Origin: a virus
Taxonomy: Duplodnaviria; Heunggongvirae; Uroviricota; Caudoviricetes
Direction: 5' to 3' (one strand)
DNA length: 28,988 bases
Virus record (IMG/VR): IMGVR_UViG_2778261696_000006
Shown here: positions 12,339 to 27,323 of the stretch, in pieces
Position numbering within the stretch: the first letter of the stretch is position 1
Layout of the letters: every line of letters begins with the position of its first letter
Notes under the pieces: generated by a model
What the model was told of the DNA's origin: nothing
Databases searched by the model: none
What the model saw: the letters and a program-made list of their open reading frames with translations, nothing else
Position numbers and translations under genes: made by a program

Positions 12339-13406
12339 ATGCGCCCGGAAACCCGTTTTAAGTTCAATGCCTATCTGACCCGCGTCGCTGAGCTGAACGG
12401 CATCAGCACTGATGACGTCAGTAAAAAATTCACCGTCGAGCCGTCCGTCACGCAAACGCTGATGAACAAAGTGCAGGAGTCATCCGCGTTTCTGCAGACG
12501 ATTAACATTCTGCCGGTCGCAGAAATGAAGGGTGAGAAAATCGGCGTCGGTGTGACCGGTACTATCGCCAGCACGACCGACACCTCGGGCGATGATGAGC
12601 GTAAGACCGCAGACTTCACCGCGCTTGAGTCCAACAAGTACGAGTGCGACCAGATTAACTTTGACTTCCATCTGAAATATAAAACCCTCGACCTGTGGGC
12701 GCGTTTTCAGGACTTTCAGCGCCGCATCCGTGACGCCATTGTTAAGCGTCAGGCGCTCGATTTCATCATGGCCGGTTTTAACGGTACCACCCGCGCCGCC
12801 ACCTCTGACCGCACCAAAAATCCGATGCTGCAGGATGTAGCCGTCGGCTGGCTGCAGAAATACCGCAACGAAGCCCCGACGCGTGTGATGAGCAATATCA
12901 CCGATGCTGACGGTAAGGTCGTTTCGGCAGTGATTCGCGTCGGTAAAAACGGCGACTATGAGAACCTCGACGCGCTGGTGATGGATGCTACCAACAACCT
13001 GATTGACGAGGTTTATCAGGATGACCCGAAACTCGTTGCCATCGTTGGCCGTAAGCTGCTGGCCGACAAATATTTCCCGCTGGTGAACAAGCCGCAAGAA
13101 AACAGCGAAGCGCTCGCGGCAGATATCATCATCAGCCAGAAGCGAATCGGCAACCTGCCTGCTGTGCGTGTACCGTACTTCCCGGCGAATGCCGTGTTAG
13201 TGACAACGCTGGAAAACCTCTCTATCTATTTCATGGATGAGAGCCACCGCCGCAGCATTGATGAAAACCCGAAAAAAGACCGCGTGGAAAACTACGAGTC
13301 AATGAATATCGACTATGTGGTCGAGGCGTATGCCGCCGGGTGTCTGCTGGAAAACATCACCCTGGGCGATTTCACCGCACCTGCAGCACCGGAAAGCGGA
13401 GAGTAA
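12339..13406 (+). CDS. N: Major capsid protein (P2 gpN)
   Basis: 355 aa, P2 N size and position, RBS AGGAAA. Confidence 0.9.
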   Translation: MRPETRFKFNAYLTRVAELNGISTDDVSKKFTVEPSVTQTLMNKVQESSAFLQTINILPVAEMKGEKIGVGVTGTIASTTDTSGDDERKTADFTALESNKYECDQINFDFHLKYKTLDLWARFQDFQRRIRDAIVKRQALDFIMAGFNGTTRAATSDRTKNPMLQDVAVGWLQKYRNEAPTRVMSNITDADGKVVSAVIRVGKNGDYENLDALVMDATNNLIDEVYQDDPKLVAIVGRKLLADKYFPLVNKPQENSEALAADIIISQKRIGNLPAVRVPYFPANAVLVTTLENLSIYFMDESHRRSIDENPKKDRVENYESMNIDYVVEAYAAGCLLENITLGDFTAPAAPESGE

Positions 13407-19140: not shown

Positions 19141-19741
19141 CCGGCTATTACCCGTTGGCTCGTCGCCGCTGGAAGTCGCCGCCGCCGCTGCGTTCTCTGA
19201 GATTCAGCGCGTGCCGGTACCGCTGCGCACCCTGTGGAACTGGCGCACCTGCCCGGTAAAGCTGCTGCCGTATCTGGCGTGGGCGCTGTCGGTCGACAGA
19301 TGGGATGAGAAATGGCCGGAGGCGACAAAGCGCAGCGTCTGCGCGTCCTCGTTTTTCGTCCATCAGCACAAAGGCACCATCAGCGCATTGCGTCGGGTCG
19401 TCGAGCCGCTCGGCTTTCTGATTGAGGTGCGCGAGTGGTGGCAACTCGACGAGGAGCCAGGCACATTCCGCCTCGTTGTTGGCGTCCTCGACAGCGGCAT
19501 CACTGACGAAATGTATCAGGAGCTTGAGCGCCTGATTGAAGACGCCAAACCGGCAAGTCGCCACCTGACCGGGCTGGCTATCAGTCTGAGCTCGACCGGC
19601 GAACTGTATGTCGGCGCGGGATGCTATCACGGCGACGCGCTGACTGTTTACCCCTACACCCCCGAGGAGATTGTCGTCGGCGGTGAATATTACCCGGCCT
19701 CGGCCATCCATTTGATTGATAACCTGAGAGTGAACGCATGA
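19133..19741 (+). CDS. I: Baseplate/tail protein I (P2 gpI)
   Basis: 202 aa, overlaps J end and H start as in P2. Confidence 0.8.
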   Translation: MNDRLLPVGSSPLEVAAAAAFSEIQRVPVPLRTLWNWRTCPVKLLPYLAWALSVDRWDEKWPEATKRSVCASSFFVHQHKGTISALRRVVEPLGFLIEVREWWQLDEEPGTFRLVVGVLDSGITDEMYQELERLIEDAKPASRHLTGLAISLSSTGELYVGAGCYHGDALTVYPYTPEEIVVGGEYYPASAIHLIDNLRVNA

Positions 19742-20856
19742 CCGCAAAATATTTTGCCATTCTGACCAATCAGGGCGCGGCGCGGCTGGCGAACGCGGCG
19801 GCACTCGGTACCAAACTCAACCTGACGCAGATGGCCGTCGGTGATGCGAATGGTACGTTGCCGACCCCTGACCCGTCGCAGACGAAGCTCATTAACCAGA
19901 AACGCATCGCGCCGCTGAACCTGCTGACCGTTGACCCGGCCAATACCAGTCAGATTATCGCGGAACAGATTATTCCCGAGAATGAAGGTGGTTTCTGGAT
20001 CCGCGAGATTGGTCTCTATGACGATGATGGTATTCTGATTGCCGTGGCGAACTGTCCGGAGACCTACAAGCCACAACTGCAGGAGGGAAGCGGTCGCACG
20101 CAGACCATTCGCATGATTCTGGTTGTGTCGAGCACATCGGCAATCACCCTGAAAATCGACCCGGCAGTCGTGCTGGCAACGCGCCAGTATGTCGACGACA
20201 AGATTATCGAGGTGAAAGGATATGCTGATGACCTGATGAAAAAACATGTTGAGGCCGCCAATCCACACAAGCAGTACCCGTTAATCGCTAATGCTCTGAA
20301 AGAAATGGTTGACGCGGGACTGGCCGGCGACGTTCTTAAAAACCTTGGTTTGGGAGAAGGTTCAGCATTACCGGTTGGTGTGCCTGTTCCGTGGCCTTCA
20401 GCTACACCACCGACAGGCTGGTTGAAATGCAATGGTGCAGCTTTTTCTTCTGAAGAATACCCGGAACTGGCAAAGGCTTACCCGACAAATAAATTGCCTG
20501 ATTTACGCGGTGAGTTTATTCGTGGCTGGGATGATGGACGCGGTGTGGATACGGGGAGGGCAATATTATCATCTCAGGGCGATGCCATACGTAATATCTA
20601 TGGTGAGTTCAAGACTGTAAACGCCGAAAATTATTCAATATGGGAATCAGTAGACTCTTTTAAGGGGGCAGTGGTGCCTTTGAACCCCTCAACGGACAAT
20701 AGTTATTTCTCCATAATCAATAGTATGTTGACACAAAGAACAGATAGCTCTGTTTACCCAACAGTGATTGGCCTTGATGCTTCAAGAATTGTTCCAACTG
20801 CAAACGAAAACCGTCCACGAAATATTGCATTTAACTTTATCGTGAGGGCTGCATAA
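19738..20856 (+). CDS. H: Tail fibre protein H, current-orientation variant (constant N-terminus plus variable C-terminus)
   Basis: 372 aa; crossover site inside the gene at 20333-20358 (codes ...VLKNLGLGEG...); C-terminal part carries a phage tail-collar-like motif (PVGVPVPWPSATPPTGWLKCNGAAFSSEEYPELA...LPDLRGEFIRGWDDGRGVD). Confidence 0.85.
   Translation: MTAKYFAILTNQGAARLANAAALGTKLNLTQMAVGDANGTLPTPDPSQTKLINQKRIAPLNLLTVDPANTSQIIAEQIIPENEGGFWIREIGLYDDDGILIAVANCPETYKPQLQEGSGRTQTIRMILVVSSTSAITLKIDPAVVLATRQYVDDKIIEVKGYADDLMKKHVEAANPHKQYPLIANALKEMVDAGLAGDVLKNLGLGEGSALPVGVPVPWPSATPPTGWLKCNGAAFSSEEYPELAKAYPTNKLPDLRGEFIRGWDDGRGVDTGRAILSSQGDAIRNIYGEFKTVNAENYSIWESVDSFKGAVVPLNPSTDNSYFSIINSMLTQRTDSSVYPTVIGLDASRIVPTANENRPRNIAFNFIVRAA
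20333..20358 (+). repeat. Gin/Hin-family recombination site (left), TTCTTAAAAACC-TT-GGTTTGGGAGAA
   Basis: 26-bp site matching the hix/gix/cix consensus TTnTCnnAAACC-nn-GGTTTnnnAnAA; inverted relative to the site at 22202-22227. Confidence 0.75.
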
Positions 20857-21458
20857 TGGATAACGCTGTATTAAATAGCGAGCTTATTGCCACGAAGGCG
20901 GGGAATATTACCGTCTATAGCTATGATGGTGAAACTCGGGAATATATTTCCACTTCAAATGAATATCTTGCCGTTGGTGTTGGTATCCCGGCATATTCCT
21001 GTCTGGATGAACCTGGTATACATAAGGCGGGTTATGCAATCTGCCGTTCGGCAGATTTAAACTCATGGGAATATGTGCCAGACCATCGCGGTGAAATCGT
21101 CTATAACACCGAAACGGGAGACACCAAAGAAATCACAACTCCGGGTGATTACCCCGAAAATACAACCACTATCGCCCCATTAACGCCATACGATAAATGG
21201 GATGGTGAGAAATGGGTGACCGATACTGAGGCACAGCATCGCGCCGCAGTAGACGCGGCAGAAGCACAGCGTCAGTCACTGATTGATACTGCAATGGCTT
21301 CCATTAGTCTGATTCAACTGAAATTACAGGCCGGGCGGAAACTGACGCAGGCAGAAACAACCCGGCTTAACGCTGTGCTGGATTACATTGACGCGGTGAC
21401 GGCAACAGATACCAGCACCGCGCCGGATGTCATCTGGCCTGAACTGCCGGAGGCGTAG
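20856..21458 (+). CDS. G: Tail fibre assembly protein (P2 gpG / Tfa)
   Basis: 200 aa, immediately follows H; C-terminus ...[10 protein letters not shown] typical of Tfa proteins. Confidence 0.8.
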
Positions 21459-21849
21459 GCCATTCAATATCGAGTGCTGTTGAAGTATTAATACGCATCA
21501 ATAGCACTCGATATTTTTTCCATGCCAGTAACAGTTTCGTTTCATCATCTGTTGCCATACCTAAATCAACCGCATCCTGAAGCGGAGCTATTACATTCGT
21601 TGCCTCTGCTATCAGTGCAGATTTCTTTTCATCATTTATTAAGGCTAATTGTTCTGGTGTTGGAGAAGGACGGTCAACAATGACAGGGTGACCGTTCTCA
21701 CCACAGGTAATCATTTTTGTTACACTCTGTGAGTTAATCAGTGTTTTCCACTCTGATTCCGAGATTTCCACTGCATCATCAGGAATATTGGTGCCGTGAA
21801 ATTCAGTCGAATAAAATCCGTTTGTCGATGCAGAATAAAAATATGACAT
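21430..21849 (-). CDS. Alternative tail fibre assembly protein (Tfa'), inverted orientation
   Basis: Track ORF trimmed to ATG 21849 ([13 protein letters not shown]..., the usual Tfa N-terminus); 3' end overlaps G convergently by 29 bp; C-terminus ...DIEWPTPP. Confidence 0.75.
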
Positions 21850-21853
21850 TTCG

Positions 21854-22210
21854 TTAATATCCCATTGCAATGTAATACGCATCAGAAGATGCACCATATC
21901 CTGAACCGGGCGACACAGTAATACTAAATCCAGTGTTCTGGACATTTGTCGCCGATACAGTCGGCTGCCCTGACGCGCCAGTAACGTTCAATGTAACTGT
22001 GACAGCAAGGACTCTTGAGAATGTCATCGGGAACGTCATCCCGTATGTTGAAGATACATTAGGGGAGCCATTCAACTGACCGCACTGTAAAATTAATCCA
22101 GACGGAAATTTTTGCGCAGCAGCCGTTGCGGTATTACTTGACGCGAACAGGCTCATATCAGGTATCTGATTCGCCCCTGTACCTACATTCCTTTTAGCTG
22201 CTTCTCCCAA
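21854..22210 (-). CDS. Alternative tail fibre C-terminal segment (H'), lacks own start; expressed only after inversion
   Basis: Open frame reads through the right crossover site as ...GLGEAAKRN..., in register with GLGE at the left site in H; first codon in track is TTG, not a real start. Confidence 0.65.
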
Positions 22211-22227
22211 ACCAACCTTTTAGAAAA
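22202..22227 (+). repeat. Gin/Hin-family recombination site (right), TTCTCCCAAACC-AA-CCTTTTAGAAAA
   Basis: Inner half-site plus core identical to reverse complement of left site (14/14); outer half-site deviates (CC where the half-site consensus has GG). Confidence 0.65.
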
Positions 22228-22281: not shown

Positions 22282-22564
22282 ATGTTTATCGGTTATGTAC
22301 GTGTATCAACAAATGACCAGAACACCGCATTACAGCGAAATGAACTGGAGTGCGCAGGATGTGAGCTGATTTTCGAAGATAAAATCAGCGGCAAAACATC
22401 AGACTGGCCGGGGCTAAAGAGGTCACTCAGAACCTTGTCAGAGGGCGATACGCTTGTGGTCTGGAAACTGGATCGCCTCGGGTATCTCAACGCTATACAA
22501 AAAATTTCCCGCATCCGTTGCTGATGTCTCAATGTGTCAGACATCGCCCAACACTGACAAATAG
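22282..22564 (+). pseudogene. Serine DNA invertase (Gin/Hin/Pin/Cin family) remnant with internal deletion
   Basis: N-terminal 66 codons intact (MFIGYVRVSTNDQNT...VVWKLDRLG, catalytic Ser present) then frame breaks; a different frame encodes ...STLYKKFPA, which I recall as the extreme C-terminus of Gin; roughly 110 codons of catalytic and HTH domains missing. Confidence 0.75.
22524..22544 (+). promoter_or_regulatory. Candidate late-promoter activator site upstream of FI (ATGTCT-N9-AGACAT dyad)
   Basis: Perfect 6-bp inverted repeat centred about 89 bp upstream of FI ATG; P2 late promoters carry a TGT-N12-ACA-like dyad near -55, spacing here is N13. Confidence 0.3.
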
Positions 22565-24886: not shown

Positions 24887-27323
24887 TAACCTGAGACTTG
24901 AGGTTTTGCTGAAAGCGGTCGACCAGGCGACCCGACCGCTTAAATCCATCCAGACCGCGAGTAAAACCCTGTCGGGCGATATTCGCGACACACAAAAAGG
25001 GCTGCGTGACCTGAACGGGCAGGCCGCGAAAATCGACGGCTTTCGCAAAACCAGCGCTCAACTGGCCGTAACCGGCCAGTCGCTGGAGAAGGCAAAGCGC
25101 GAGGCTGAAGCGCTTGCCACGCAATTCAAAAATACTGAGCGCCCGACGCGAGCGCAGGCACAGGTGCTCGAATCCGCAAAACGTGCCGCCGAGGGGCTGC
25201 AGGTTAAATACAACAGCCTCACCGAGTCGGTTAAACGCCAGCAACGCGAGCTAGGTGCCGCCGGTATCAATACCCGCAATCTGGCAAACGATGAGCGGGG
25301 GCTTAAAACACGCATCAGCGAGACGACGGCGCAGCTCAACCGGCAGCGCGAAGCATTGGCGAAGGTCAGCGCACAGCAGGCGCACCTAAACCGAGTGAAA
25401 GAGCGATATAAATCGGGTAAGGAACTTGCCGGTAACATGGCCGCTGCAGGTGCTGCCGGGGTCGGTATTGCGACAGCGGGAACGATGGCCGGGGTTAAAT
25501 TGCTGATGCCCGGTTATGACTTTGCGCAAAAAAACTCCGAGCTGCAAGCTGTGCTCGGGGTCGATAAGCAGTCACCAGAAATGGAGGCGCTACGCAAACA
25601 GGCACGCCAGCTCGGTGACAATACAGCCGCTTCTGCTGATGATGCAGCCAGTGCGCAGATTATTATCGCCAAAGGGGGCGGCGATGCGGCAGCCATTCAG
25701 GCGACGACACCGGTCACCCTCAATATGGCGCTTGCCAACCGTCGCACGATGGAAGAAAACGCCGCATTACTGATGGGGATGCGCTCTGCGTTTCAGCTTT
25801 CCAATGACAAGGTGGCGCACATTGGCGACGTTCTGTCGACGGTGATGAATAAAACTGCTGCCGATTTCGACGGGCTGAGCGATGCGCTGACATACGCCGC
25901 GCCGGTGGCGAAAAATGCCGGTGTCAGCATTGAAGAAACTGCCGCAATGGTGGGCGCCCTGCATGACGCCAAAATCACCGGCTCGATGGCCGGCACCGGG
26001 AGCCGTGCGGTTTTAAGCCGCCTGCAGGCTCCGACCGGTAAAGCGTGGGATGCGCTTAAGGAGCTGGGTGTCAAAACTTCCGACAGTAAAGGCAACACGC
26101 GCCCGATTTTTACCATCCTCAAAGAAATACAAGCCAGCTTTAAGCGCAACAACCTCGGTACAGGTCAAAAAGCCGAGTATATGAAAACGATATTCGGCGA
26201 GGAAGCCAGTTCCGCTGCAAGTGTGTTAATGGCCGCAGCGGCCAGTGGAAAACTGGATGAACTGACCAAGATAATTAAGGATTCTGACGGTAAAACCGAG
26301 GAATTGGTTAAGGTCATGCAGGATAACTTAGGTGGCGACTTCAAAGAGTTTCAATCCGCTTATGAGGCCGTCGGTACCGACCTCTACGACCAGCAAGATA
26401 GCTCATTGCGTCAGCTAACTCAGACAGCAACACGGTATGTGCTAAAGCTTGATGGCTGGATCAAAGACAACAAGGAGTTAGCGGAAACTATCGGCATCAT
26501 CGCCGGTGGTGCGCTGGCGCTGATTGGTATCATCGGCGGCATTGGTCTCGTTGCGTGGCCGGTTGTCATGGGGATTAATGCCATTATCGCCGCTGCTGGC
26601 GTGCTGGGTACGGTCTTTACTGTCGTCGGTAGTGCCATTGCGACAGCGCTCGGTGCGATTACCTGGCCGATAGTGGCCGTCGGTGCGGCGATTGTGGCGG
26701 GGGCGCTACTCATCCGTAAATATTGGGAGCCCATCAGCGCATTTTTCTCGGGAGTGATTGAGGGCATCATGAGTGCCTTTGCCCCAGTCGGGGAAATGTT
26801 CGCTCCACTGGCTCCCATTTTTGATGGTCTCGGCGAGAAACTGCGCGGCGTCTGGCAGTGGTTTAAAGACCTGATAGCACCGGTTAAGGCCACGCAGGAA
26901 ACGCTTGATAGCTGCAAAAATGTCGGCGTCATATTTGGTCAGGCACTGGCCTCTGCCTTGATGGCTCCGCTCAATGTTTTTAACAAGCTGCGCAGCGGTG
27001 TCGACTGGCTTCTCGAAAAGCTCGGCATCATCAACAAAGAGTCGGACAGCCTCGACCAGACCGCCGCCAAAACCAATGCCGCCACACAGGGTAATTCCTA
27101 CATCCCGGCAACCAGCACATATGGCGGCTATCAGGCTTATCAGCCAGTTACCGCACCGGCGGGGCGCTCTTACATTGACCAGAGCAAAAGCGAATACAAC
27201 ATCAATCTGCCGGGAGGTGTTGCGCCGGGGCATCAGCTTGACAGACAACTACGCGACACGCTCGAACAGATTGAGCGCGATAAACGCGCCCGCCAGCGTG
27301 CCAACATGACCCACGACTATTGA
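24879..27323 (+). CDS. T: Tail tape measure protein (P2 gpT)
   Basis: 814 aa, low-complexity Ala/Gly-rich central region, P2 T size and position. Confidence 0.9.
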   Translation: MSNNLRLEVLLKAVDQATRPLKSIQTASKTLSGDIRDTQKGLRDLNGQAAKIDGFRKTSAQLAVTGQSLEKAKREAEALATQFKNTERPTRAQAQVLESAKRAAEGLQVKYNSLTESVKRQQRELGAAGINTRNLANDERGLKTRISETTAQLNRQREALAKVSAQQAHLNRVKERYKSGKELAGNMAAAGAAGVGIATAGTMAGVKLLMPGYDFAQKNSELQAVLGVDKQSPEMEALRKQARQLGDNTAASADDAASAQIIIAKGGGDAAAIQATTPVTLNMALANRRTMEENAALLMGMRSAFQLSNDKVAHIGDVLSTVMNKTAADFDGLSDALTYAAPVAKNAGVSIEETAAMVGALHDAKITGSMAGTGSRAVLSRLQAPTGKAWDALKELGVKTSDSKGNTRPIFTILKEIQASFKRNNLGTGQKAEYMKTIFGEEASSAASVLMAAAASGKLDELTKIIKDSDGKTEELVKVMQDNLGGDFKEFQSAYEAVGTDLYDQQDSSLRQLTQTATRYVLKLDGWIKDNKELAETIGIIAGGALALIGIIGGIGLVAWPVVMGINAIIAAAGVLGTVFTVVGSAIATALGAITWPIVAVGAAIVAGALLIRKYWEPISAFFSGVIEGIMSAFAPVGEMFAPLAPIFDGLGEKLRGVWQWFKDLIAPVKATQETLDSCKNVGVIFGQALASALMAPLNVFNKLRSGVDWLLEKLGIINKESDSLDQTAAKTNAATQGNSYIPATSTYGGYQAYQPVTAPAGRSYIDQSKSEYNINLPGGVAPGHQLDRQLRDTLEQIERDKRARQRANMTHDY

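Follow-up and report, generated by a model that had tools for sequence, protein, structure and literature searches.

Can a tail-fibre switch go on operating once the gene of its own recombinase has been lost, and where would the enzyme then come from? The question is posed by the fibre locus of a 28,988-bp stretch of viral DNA (hereafter the window), in which two recombination sites bracket alternative fibre tips and the neighbouring invertase gene is a deletion remnant. We conclude, with a probability of roughly 0.8, that this is a Pin-type tail-fibre switch, akin to the P segment of the e14 element, which has a dead invertase of its own and is flipped through a recombinase acting in trans.

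The window has the P2-type order of late genes, V-W-J-I-H-(tfa)-FI-FII-E-T-U-D, together with a capsid and terminase module of the P2 type, and its Pfam matches include Baseplate_J, Tail_P2_I and sheath domains. It is 100% identical to DNA of Escherichia coli EC15 and EC18. The whole prophage sits between rplS and yfiB, and its genes, as called by PGAP, include CI, CII, Fil and integrase. The host element is apparently a complete P2/186-like (Peduoviridae) prophage of E. coli, and the lineage is also known as a phage record, vB_EcoM-613R3.

The invertible segment and its sites

The features of the segment are as follows.

19738..20346, + strand: constant N-terminal part of H, 203 codons up to the crossover core; Pfam PF12571 Phage_tail_fib at residues 1-150, E 1.2e-62
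20333-20358, no strand: left site (pixL-like), TTCTTAAAAACC TT GGTTTGGGAGAA, core at 20345-20346
20347..20856, + strand: variable tip A of H, collar-type receptor-binding module; Pfam Collar PF07484, E 4e-15
20856..21458, + strand: tfa, TfaE-like tail-fibre assembly chaperone for tip A, 200 aa; Pfam Caudo_TAP PF02413, E 2e-32
21466..21515, no strand: hairpin between the convergent chaperone genes, inverted repeat I6 with 18-nt arms, 94% complementary
21430..21882, - strand: tfa', inverted, chaperone for tip B; Pfam Caudo_TAP PF02413, E 3e-31; 'tail fiber assembly protein' in PGAP
21854..22213, - strand: tip B (H'), gp53-like fibre tip; Pfam Gp53-like_C PF21882, E 1.3e-14; phrog_1396 tail fibre, E 6e-34
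22202-22227, no strand: right site (pixR-like), TTCTCCCAAACC AA CCTTTTAGAAAA, core at 22214-22215, outer half starting with CC

A preliminary description of this DNA had recognized a Gin/Hin-type invertible tail-fibre segment of about 1.87 kb between two inverted 26-bp sites. Its coordinates are exact, the distance from core to core being 1,871 bp, and all four of the constituents that it listed (the C-terminus of H, tfa, an inverted tfa' and an inverted H') have Pfam matches. Assignment to the Gin/Hin (Din) family is borne out by the similarity of the sites to those of e14 and by natural inversions (see below). The segment is also more AT-rich than its surroundings, as had been suspected, its GC content being 0.458, whereas the left flank has 0.591 and the right one 0.572; it looks like a horizontally exchanged module.

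In each site, a 2-bp core is flanked by two half-sites of 12 bp that are imperfectly symmetric. The inner half-sites and the core are identical, exactly as previously read, and the orientation is inverted: the reverse complement of the right site is TTTTCTAAAAGG TT GGTTTGGGAGAA, so that the AA of the right core on the + strand becomes the TT of the left core, an agreement that religation of the exchanged ends requires. The two sites contain a perfect inverted repeat of 15 nt (20345-20359 / 22201-22215). A scan with the hix-type consensus at a threshold of at least 17/24 matches finds only these two 26-mers in the window, compared with a mean of 0.03 such sites in mononucleotide shuffles of it. 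The proposed comparison with experimentally defined gix, hix and cix sites aligns the pair with Din-family sites, of which pix are the closest: the reverse complement of the left site matches the published pixL at 23/26 positions, and the right site matches the published pixR equally well, at 23/26. The two sites are orthologues of e14 pixL and pixR.

The right outer half-site had been described as degenerate. The CC is indeed present and is the sole deviation adjoining the core, where most Din-family sites have GG, but its supposed peculiarity has to be given up: among functional published sites, pixR and mix have CG and nix has CC at this position, and the outer half of hixR, likewise a functional site, deviates in the same way, with GG where the consensus has CC (Table 3, PMC3241671). 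The CC was also found in 10/10 loci of the lineage fetched outside the EC15/EC18/EC12 clone, which include members of three further groups with both orientations. It is a tolerated natural variant and no block to recombination.

In the orientation given, tip A is fused to the constant part and H has 372 aa. Tip A matches a 'Short tail fiber' (9cuy_c, E 2.7e-24) and T4 gp37 (2xgf, E 4.5e-16) in PDB and shares 58% amino-acid identity with the C-terminus of e14 StfE, while the tfa product is 89.5% identical to e14 TfaE. Tip B returned no match in a search of solved structures; the search of both tips for receptor-binding domains that had been recommended nevertheless identifies each as a tail-fibre tip, through Collar in tip A and Gp53-like_C in H'. 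The frames of H and H' both read GLGE across the core, and in-silico inversion at the core yields an in-frame H of 322 aa, the alternative fibre that had been foreseen. Tip B itself is a start-less reading frame, expressed solely after inversion, as H of 322 aa. Its chaperone tfa' (150 aa in PGAP, 139 aa with the ATG at 21849 as start) is silent in the orientation given. The hairpin between the chaperone genes, which as RNA folds with -30.3 kcal/mol (z = -7.9) and has a T-run behind it on the + strand, is probably a terminator; no hits were obtained when the window was scanned with Rfam and for tRNAs. The layout is that of S/U-S'/U', two in-frame fibre C-termini, each with its own assembly chaperone.

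The invertase remnant and the putative enhancer

Two further features lie to the right of the segment.

22282..22524, + strand: remnant of a Din-type DNA invertase gene, with 67 native codons (22282-22482), a deletion of ~315 nt and an out-of-frame tail
22300..22371, no strand: equivalent of the Fis-dependent recombinational enhancer, gene nt 19-90, inside the remnant and 85 bp from the right core

A complete serine recombinase gene, of ~185-195 aa with a catalytic domain, helix E and a C-terminal HTH, is not found next to the segment. Alignment of the remnant with pinE, gin and the gene of KC618326 places the deletion junction at ~22483/22484; the match to Pfam Resolvase (PF00239) covers profile positions 2-76 of 145 only, most of the catalytic domain, helix E and the DNA-binding domain are gone, and PGAP calls a pseudogene 'missing C-terminus'. 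The prophage's own invertase gene is dead, because the internal deletion leaves no more than the 67 native codons, and a switch with such a remnant cannot be autonomous. The deletion in the recombinase gene at 22282-22524 had been overlooked in the preliminary description. KC618326, from a P2-like phage, was rejected as a reference for the intact invertase, its gene being frameshifted, with 164 aa and no HTH. Among 5,426 complete E. coli genomes, 35 share the deletion junction; the deletion, being one and the same in all 35, predates them.

Din invertases require a Fis-bound enhancer, normally ~100 bp from one of the sites (PMC3798978; PMC4513852). In the P1 record the Cin enhancer is annotated at cin nt 19-90; the equivalent interval of the remnant is 82% identical to it, with the end blocks GTATCAACAAATGA and GCGCAGGATGTGAGC conserved. 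This interval is invariant across 9 copies of the lineage; all 35 copies stem from one deletion event, so its 'retention' is no independent replicate. From its conservation we infer that the putative enhancer in the remnant is functional.

Inversion among sister genomes and the probable source of the recombinase

When the window is inverted in silico, it agrees with the DNA of EC12, a sister strain isolated in the same hospital, without a mismatch (0 over 8,877 bp), and when EC12 is compared with EC15 along 48,001 bp, comprising the prophage and its host flanks, all differences fall inside the segment. The constant part of H is unchanged in either orientation; in EC12 tip B is fused to it in an annotated CDS of 969 nt, so that both fusions exist as annotated CDS across the two strains. 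After in-silico inversion, there are likewise 0 mismatches between CH423 and CH425 (7,199 bp) and between 5283 and 2779 (7,472 bp). E1535 and E1739 have opposite orientations and an inner half-site SNP which moves with the segment, placing the crossover within a 10-nt interval that contains the core. Taken together, the four pairs (EC15-EC18/EC12, CH423/CH425, 5283/2779, E1535/E1739) show 0-3 mismatches after in-silico inversion at the core and map the crossover to 10-15 nt around it. In a further group, strains 222, 103 and 5283 have one orientation, and FDAARGOS_1280, 2779, 98210, 98192 and 98224 the other. Both orientations, with exchange at the sites, are found in four groups of near-identical genomes, and these comparisons indicate that the segment flips in nature, between clone-mates. 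Since the invertase of the prophage itself is dead and the switch yet operates in nature, another prophage most likely supplies the recombinase in trans.

Candidate genes were counted with a query made of 24 copies of the 60-nt deletion junction plus a probe, by which the 35 chromosomes of the lineage rank at the top; the number of places per record then gives the number of loci matched by the probe, as counts without coordinates. The N-terminal Din-type probe has one extra locus each in EC15 and EC18 and two in EC12. Counts with a helix-E/HTH probe are equal in all three strains, and the N-terminal and C-terminal matches probably belong to one gene. The extra locus of EC15 is pinE-like at the megablast level, as known from probe counts, which do not imply an intact gene. 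Its assignment to an e14 element at icd turned out to be wrong, as iraM and icd are adjacent in EC15 and e14 is absent from its usual site. A probe of gene nt 205-515 produced a spurious extra locus in nearly all genomes, which we attribute to a near-universal pinH pseudogene fragment (cross-match to the probe was seen in K-12); when the probe was cut to nt 286-515, the extra count disappeared.

The pinR and pinQ genes (38% amino-acid identity) are too diverged for Din-type DNA probes, and hence were sought separately. By these searches the Houston/Boston group shows no Din-type locus and a single PinQ/R-type one, a PinQ/R-type gene is the sole candidate in the ST131-like group, and the same is true of eight genomes with both orientations, which have no Din-type gene on the chromosome. 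That a gene of this type could act on such sites is suggested by one paper (PMC12529663). No PinE-like invertase was found in the plasmids of 2779/5283, searched over the first 50 kb of one IncI1 and two IncF plasmids; these parts contain just Tn3-family resolvase genes, one intact and one truncated. On the chromosomes of AST217 and ESBLEC_MG48 neither a Din-type nor a PinQ/R-type gene is detectable, and there the segment may be locked.

Four other accounts of the two orientations have to be weighed. The orientation might be set at lysogenisation, if the segment flipped during phage growth in invertase-carrying hosts and sister strains were lysogenised separately. The existence of a phage record for the lineage and the complete appearance of the prophage fit this account, which would also cover flips in genomes without a Din-type gene. 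We nevertheless consider it improbable: EC12 and EC15 share the insertion site of the prophage and, host flanks included, show zero differences over 48 kb, CH423/CH425 and 5283/2779 behave likewise, separate acquisition by already immune clone-mates is less parsimonious, and an invertase in trans would still be required.

Marginally weaker again is the case for general homologous recombination, or template switching, between the short inverted repeats, with no site-specific invertase involved. A perfect repeat is at hand, the mapped crossover interval does not allow the core to be told from the remainder of the identical block, and the Houston/Boston group is without a Din-type gene. In E. coli, however, RecA-dependent exchange usually needs roughly 23-27 bp, which is more than the 15 nt available; moreover, the repeats are bona fide pix sites by their 23/26 matches to pixL and pixR, the same event recurs in four groups, and at least one Pin-type gene is present in each group that shows flips.

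It is very unlikely that the locus is a frozen relic, its sites mere fossils and its orientation fixed since the invertase was lost. The truncation of the gene speaks for such a relic, as do AST217 and ESBLEC_MG48, with no detectable candidate gene and a possibly locked segment; yet the deletion is older than the 35 genomes, four near-identical groups among which differ by exact inversion at the sites, and for EC15/EC12 the idea is already contradicted. Least credible of all are assembly artefacts, for although assemblers can mis-orient segments between long inverted repeats, the repeats here (15-21 nt) are far below read or k-mer length and the differences are exact, at the expected sites and present in assemblies of five independent sources (Hangzhou, Islamabad, Houston, Boston and an Argentina/Bangladesh pair).

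Under the preferred reading of a Pin-type switch driven in trans, the 1,871-bp segment would be flipped by a serine DNA invertase that binds both 26-bp pix-like sites, cuts at their central TT/AA dinucleotide and lets the strands rotate. The constant part of H, with its 203 residues, would thereby be joined in frame to one of two tips, the collar-type tip being made with the TfaE-like chaperone and the gp53-like tip with the short one, and phage particles would come in two adsorption specificities, with a presumed effect on host range. The surviving first 201 nt of the invertase gene would provide the equivalent of the cis-required Fis-dependent enhancer. The recombinase would come from another prophage, the candidate enzymes being the product of the pinE-like gene in EC15 and of the PinQ/R-type gene in the ST131-like group.

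A more far-reaching proposal, to which we give somewhat less than even odds, is that this P2/186-like lineage has outsourced its invertase while keeping the sites and the enhancer-bearing stump. The stump would then be maintained as a cis-acting enhancer and not be a decaying pseudogene, and switching, as well as its rate, would be set by the PinE-like or PinQ/R-like recombinase of the host's other prophages. If so, fibre switching would be a host-dependent trait, coupled across prophages.

Systems of this kind are known, and this one stands apart only modestly, by being orphaned yet active; invertible tail-fibre segments have their place in textbooks, so that little is gained from the segment as such. 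Of possible use is a natural case of a switch without its own recombinase that still flips between clone-mates, along with 35 sequenced genomes that allow cross-talk between prophage invertases to be studied and, in those apparently without any candidate enzyme, possible natural locked controls. It also carries two warnings for annotation: an 'incomplete recombinase' beside a tail-fibre gene does not imply a dead switch, and the H protein of such prophages may differ among otherwise identical isolates.

Comparison with known systems

In its working the segment resembles a Din-family switch, although it is neither complete nor autonomous. With the G segment of Mu (Gin) and the C segment of P1 (Cin) it shares alternative in-frame fibre C-termini (S/S'), each with a chaperone of its own (U/U'), a pair of 26-bp sites and, inside the 5' end of the invertase gene, an enhancer, which in the window is putative. 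Gin and Cin, in contrast, are intact and adjoin their segments, which are larger (3.0 and 4.2 kb), and gix and cix are more distant from the sites of the window (17-20/26).

In the H segment of Salmonella, the outer half of the functional hixR deviates beside the core as the right site does here, but Hin flips a promoter and not a coding tip. Fin of the Fels-2 prophage supports flipping of the H segment in the absence of Hin (PMC4122451), which is a parallel in that the invertase of a P2-like prophage can serve the sites of another element in trans. The roles are reversed, however: there a chromosomal switch borrows a phage enzyme, whereas the window would hold a phage switch that borrows its enzyme from elsewhere.

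In cultures of enteropathogenic E. coli (EPEC), invertible segments of P2-like prophages were seen to flip, according to the relevant part of one report (PMC4272514). The E2348/69 loci treated there (Goldberg et al. 2014) are similar to ours in that P2-like prophages have invertase-driven alternative fibre C-termini, with both forms in one culture; unlike ours, they are described, in that part of the report, as an invertase plus inverted repeats, with no mention of a defective invertase.

Closest is the P segment of e14 in E. coli K-12, served by Pin. The inner half-site and core are identical, the similarity of sites, TfaE and StfE tip is as given above, and the order is the same: constant part of the fibre, tip and tfa, inverted tfa' and tip', invertase gene. 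The repeats at which PinE and PinQ drive inversion, TTGGTTTGGGAGAAGG / CCTTCTCCCAAACCAA, are the same as in the window (PMC12529663). The differences are that e14 is a remnant and the present element a complete P2/186-like myovirus prophage, that the second cassette of the window is gp53-like, that its invertase gene is a deletion remnant, and that its right outer half starts with CC where pixR has CG.

PinQ of the Qin prophage inverts the e14 P segment in trans (Kirigo et al. 2025, PMC12529663), so that a recombinase of one prophage inverts the tail-fibre segment of another at the same repeats, as proposed here; our case complements this recent report. The e14 segment becomes locked when pinE is deleted and, with it, the enhancer region (PMC12529663), and this would be consistent with a need in cis for the 5' part of the gene, the part retained in the window. 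The two cases differ in that e14 retains its own PinE and in that the outcome there is host defence against phage T2 by the chimeric fibre protein of a cryptic prophage.

The invertible segment and its recombination sites

Two urine isolates from Hangzhou, E. coli EC15 and EC18, carry the window in their chromosomes at 100% identity, the prophage being inserted between rplS and yfiB. The window contains genes for an integrase, CI, CII, Fil, replication, capsid and lysis, with the tail genes in P2 order, and apparently covers a complete P2/186-like prophage. Positions 1-28988 correspond to EC15 1467338-1496325 and take in practically all of the prophage, gene D through integrase; an ogr-like regulator gene lies just beyond the window edge. 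The early region seems to be 186-like, not P2-like, to judge by its genes for CI, CII, Fil and a DinI-like protein. The tail-fibre gene H runs into a segment of 1,871 bp, core to core, with the following features:

20333-20358: left site, TTCTTAAAAACC TT GGTTTGGGAGAA
within the segment, + strand: end of H, collar tip (Collar, PF07484, E 4e-15)
within the segment, + strand: tail-fibre assembly gene tfa, 200 aa (PF02413, E 2e-32)
21466-21515: hairpin, -30.3 kcal/mol, z = -7.9
within the segment, - strand: inverted second assembly gene tfa' (PF02413, E 3e-31)
within the segment, - strand: inverted, start-less fibre tip H' (Gp53-like_C, PF21882, E 1e-14)
22202-22227: right site, TTCTCCCAAACC AA CCTTTTAGAAAA (reverse complement TTTTCTAAAAGG TT GGTTTGGGAGAA)

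Every detail that the preliminary description had observed in the segment and its sites was confirmed. The two 26-bp sites are inverted, the core and inner half-sites have the same sequence in both, and CC in the right outer half is the sole difference adjoining the core. A repeat finder reports the pair as an inverted repeat of 21 nt, 90% complementary, and a scan of the window for at least 17 of 24 matches to the hix-type consensus returned just these two 26-mers, the mean at that threshold being 0.03 sites in mononucleotide shuffles of the window. A weak Din-site lookalike at 26162-26187 (16/24 matches), within the tape-measure gene, is probably a chance occurrence. We compared both sites, in common notation, with the experimentally defined Din-family sites in Table 3 of PMC3241671. 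The left site agrees with pixL, and the right site with pixR, at 23/26 positions each, these being the Pin sites of the e14 P segment of E. coli K-12; the core AA and inner half TTCTCCCAAACC do not differ from either pix site. The right outer half had been thought degenerate on account of its CC, a view that does not hold, because the same position varies among functional sites, with CG in pixR and mix and CC in nix, and hixR has GG in place of consensus CC in its outer half (PMC3241671); moreover, CC is found in 10 of 10 loci fetched, from outside the EC15/EC18/EC12 clone, from genomes with the invertase deletion described below. The right half-site is a normal variant.

As proposed earlier, inversion would yield an alternative in-frame fibre: GLGE spans the core in both reading frames, and in-silico inversion at the core leaves H open at 322 aa, versus 372 aa as given. 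The segment is also AT-richer than its surroundings (GC 0.458, versus 0.59 and 0.57 in the flanks). Both tips are genuine fibre modules, judged by sequence matches. Among solved structures, the collar tip is matched by the fibres 9cuy_c 'Short tail fiber' (E 2.7e-24) and T4 gp37 (E 4.5e-16); it shares 58% identity with the StfE tip of e14, and its chaperone is 89.5% identical to TfaE of e14. The gp53-like tip has hits in PHROG tail-fibre families (E 6e-34), and at the DNA level the Shigella phages SfIV and SfI have fibre genes 95-97% identical to it.

The hairpin, with a stem of 18 nt, stands at the segment centre, exactly between the convergent chaperone genes, and only on the + strand does a T-run come after it. 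Termination of the H-tfa transcript at this hairpin may be more efficient in one orientation than in the other. A 23-nt inverted repeat, 87% complementary, pairs 21927-21949 in the silent H' tip with 22309-22331 in the enhancer-equivalent part of the invertase remnant, and may be due to chance. The same orphaned backbone occurs with no fewer than five different cassette pairs, H ranging from 318 to 372 aa (fetched loci L004-L006 and L010-L016), and a group of genomes from Houston and Boston has two gp53-like tips; evidently, the phages swap cassettes while the sites and the invertase stump stay constant.

The invertase remnant and inversion in natural isolates

Beside the right site, an ORF at 22282-22524 (+ strand) contains 67 invertase codons, up to KLDRLG, followed by 13 unrelated ones, and its match to Pfam Resolvase goes no further than position 76 of the 145-position profile. 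Aligned with e14 pinE, Mu gin and a related P2-like phage, the gene shows an internal deletion of about 315 nt, with the junction at approximately 22483/22484, which took out helix E, the remainder of the catalytic domain and almost the entire DNA-binding domain; some 40 nt of the 3' end are still present, out of frame. PGAP annotates the remnant as an incomplete pseudogene, and its protein cannot act as a recombinase. The same junction is found in 35 of 5,426 complete E. coli genomes, in every case on the chromosome, and in phage record vB_EcoM-613R3; some copies have an extra frameshift (4-nt insertion or 1-nt deletion). In the related P2-like phage used in the alignment, the 'phage DNA invertase' (KC618326.1, 4436-5071) is also frameshifted, at 164 aa and without the HTH. 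Around the right site of that phage, a 16-nt insertion has produced a 26-bp inverted repeat free of mismatches, behind which a residual pixR-like outer half remains; this may go back to an exchange of cassettes or sites.

The segment nevertheless inverts. EC12, from the same hospital as EC15 and EC18, has the same prophage at the same insertion site, matches the in-silico inverted window over 8,877 bp with 0 mismatches, and differs from EC15 over 48,001 bp of prophage and host flanks only within the segment; its annotated H, a gene of 969 nt, agrees with the prediction. CH425 matches in-silico inverted CH423 (Islamabad) with 0 mismatches in 7,199 bp, CH458 having the CH423 layout, and after in-silico inversion 5283 and 2779 (Houston) show 0 mismatches in 7,472 bp. 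Strands read against the deletion-junction search place 222, 103 and 5283 in one orientation and FDAARGOS_1280, 2779, 98210, 98192 and 98224 in the other. E1535 and E1739 are in opposite orientations and differ at 3 further positions elsewhere. An inner half-site SNP (GGTTTGGGAGAA versus GGTTTGGGGGAA) has travelled with the segment and the outer CC has kept its place, which confines the crossover to a 10-nt interval containing the core.

Exact and recurrent inversions between otherwise identical genomes make it unlikely that the segment is a frozen relic, and the same evidence renders improbable separate lysogenisation by phages of either orientation, RecA-type recombination at a repeat of 15 nt, and assembly error. 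Since the deletion is common to all flipped genomes, it is older than the inversions, which thus took place without the prophage's own enzyme. The segment is a working Pin-type invertible tail-fibre switch of known kind; the real peculiarity is its orphaned state, the prophage's invertase gene being reduced to a stump with an enhancer equivalent.

The stump as a putative enhancer

Din invertases require in cis an enhancer bound by Fis, which as a rule lies some 100 bp away from one of the sites (PMC3798978; PMC4513852). The Gin enhancer is within the invertase gene, as Kahmann et al. 1985 state in their title (a reference of PMC4513852), and in the P1 record an enhancer feature spans nt 19-90 of cin. 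The equivalent stretch, 22300-22371, belongs to the retained 201 nt, at a distance of 85 bp from the right core, and is 82% identical to the cin enhancer, versus 63% over nt 91-201, with conserved end blocks GTATCAACAAATGA and GCGCAGGATGTGAGC. Nine lineage copies, all from one event, show 0 differences in nt 1-100 of the gene and 5 downstream, including both frameshifts; given this small sample of single origin, the argument that the stump may serve as the cis enhancer rests mainly on the known requirement and the observed flips.

Candidate recombinases acting in trans

Inversion probably depends on recombinases of other prophages. Loci were counted with a query of 24 copies of the 60-nt deletion junction plus a probe, which ranks the 35 lineage chromosomes first; the places matched by the probe in each record are counted as loci, without coordinates.

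Loci matched per chromosome, excluding the remnant itself. The Houston/Boston group comprises 222, 103, 5283, 2779, 98210, 98192, 98224 and FDAARGOS_1280 (n=8).
Genomes	Din-type 5' probe	Helix E + HTH probe	PinQ/R probe
EC15, EC18	1	1	0
EC12	2	2	0
CH423, CH425, CH458	1	1	2
E1535	3	2	1
E1739	4	2	1
Houston/Boston group	0	0	1
AST217, ESBLEC_MG48	0	0	0

At least one candidate enzyme is present in every group with flips. The extra locus of EC15 is pinE-like in a search with full-length pinE; e14 was looked for at icd in EC15 and is absent there. In the Houston/Boston group the PinQ/R-type gene is the sole chromosomal candidate, plasmids having been covered in part. EC12 (NZ_CP060933.1, inverted segment) has one Din-type locus more than its clone-mates EC15 and EC18, and its chromosome exceeds theirs by 26 kb; a further element with an invertase may have been acquired. 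The chromosomes of AST217 (NZ_AP043630.1) and ESBLEC_MG48 (NZ_CM132639.1) have no Din-type or PinQ/R-type locus by the helix E/HTH and PinQ/R probes and carry the same orphaned switch, which makes them candidate naturally locked controls.

A first probe, taken from the middle of Din-type invertase genes, gave one locus too many in nearly every genome (about 85% of E. coli genomes), attributed to the near-universal pinH pseudogene fragment (b2648; 13066-13305 in the fetched K-12 locus L021), which matches PinE residues 38-94 and cross-matches the probe in K-12. This fragment can inflate counts of 'invertase genes'.

Three reports support action in trans. In the absence of Hin, inversion of H is supported by Fin, which comes from the P2-like prophage Fels-2 (PMC4122451), and invertible loci of P2-like prophages were observed to flip in EPEC cultures (PMC4272514). 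PinQ, whose identity to PinE is 38%, is reported to act in trans on the P segment of e14, which it inverts at repeats TTGGTTTGGGAGAAGG and CCTTCTCCCAAACCAA (PMC12529663); these are the same repeats as those found here.
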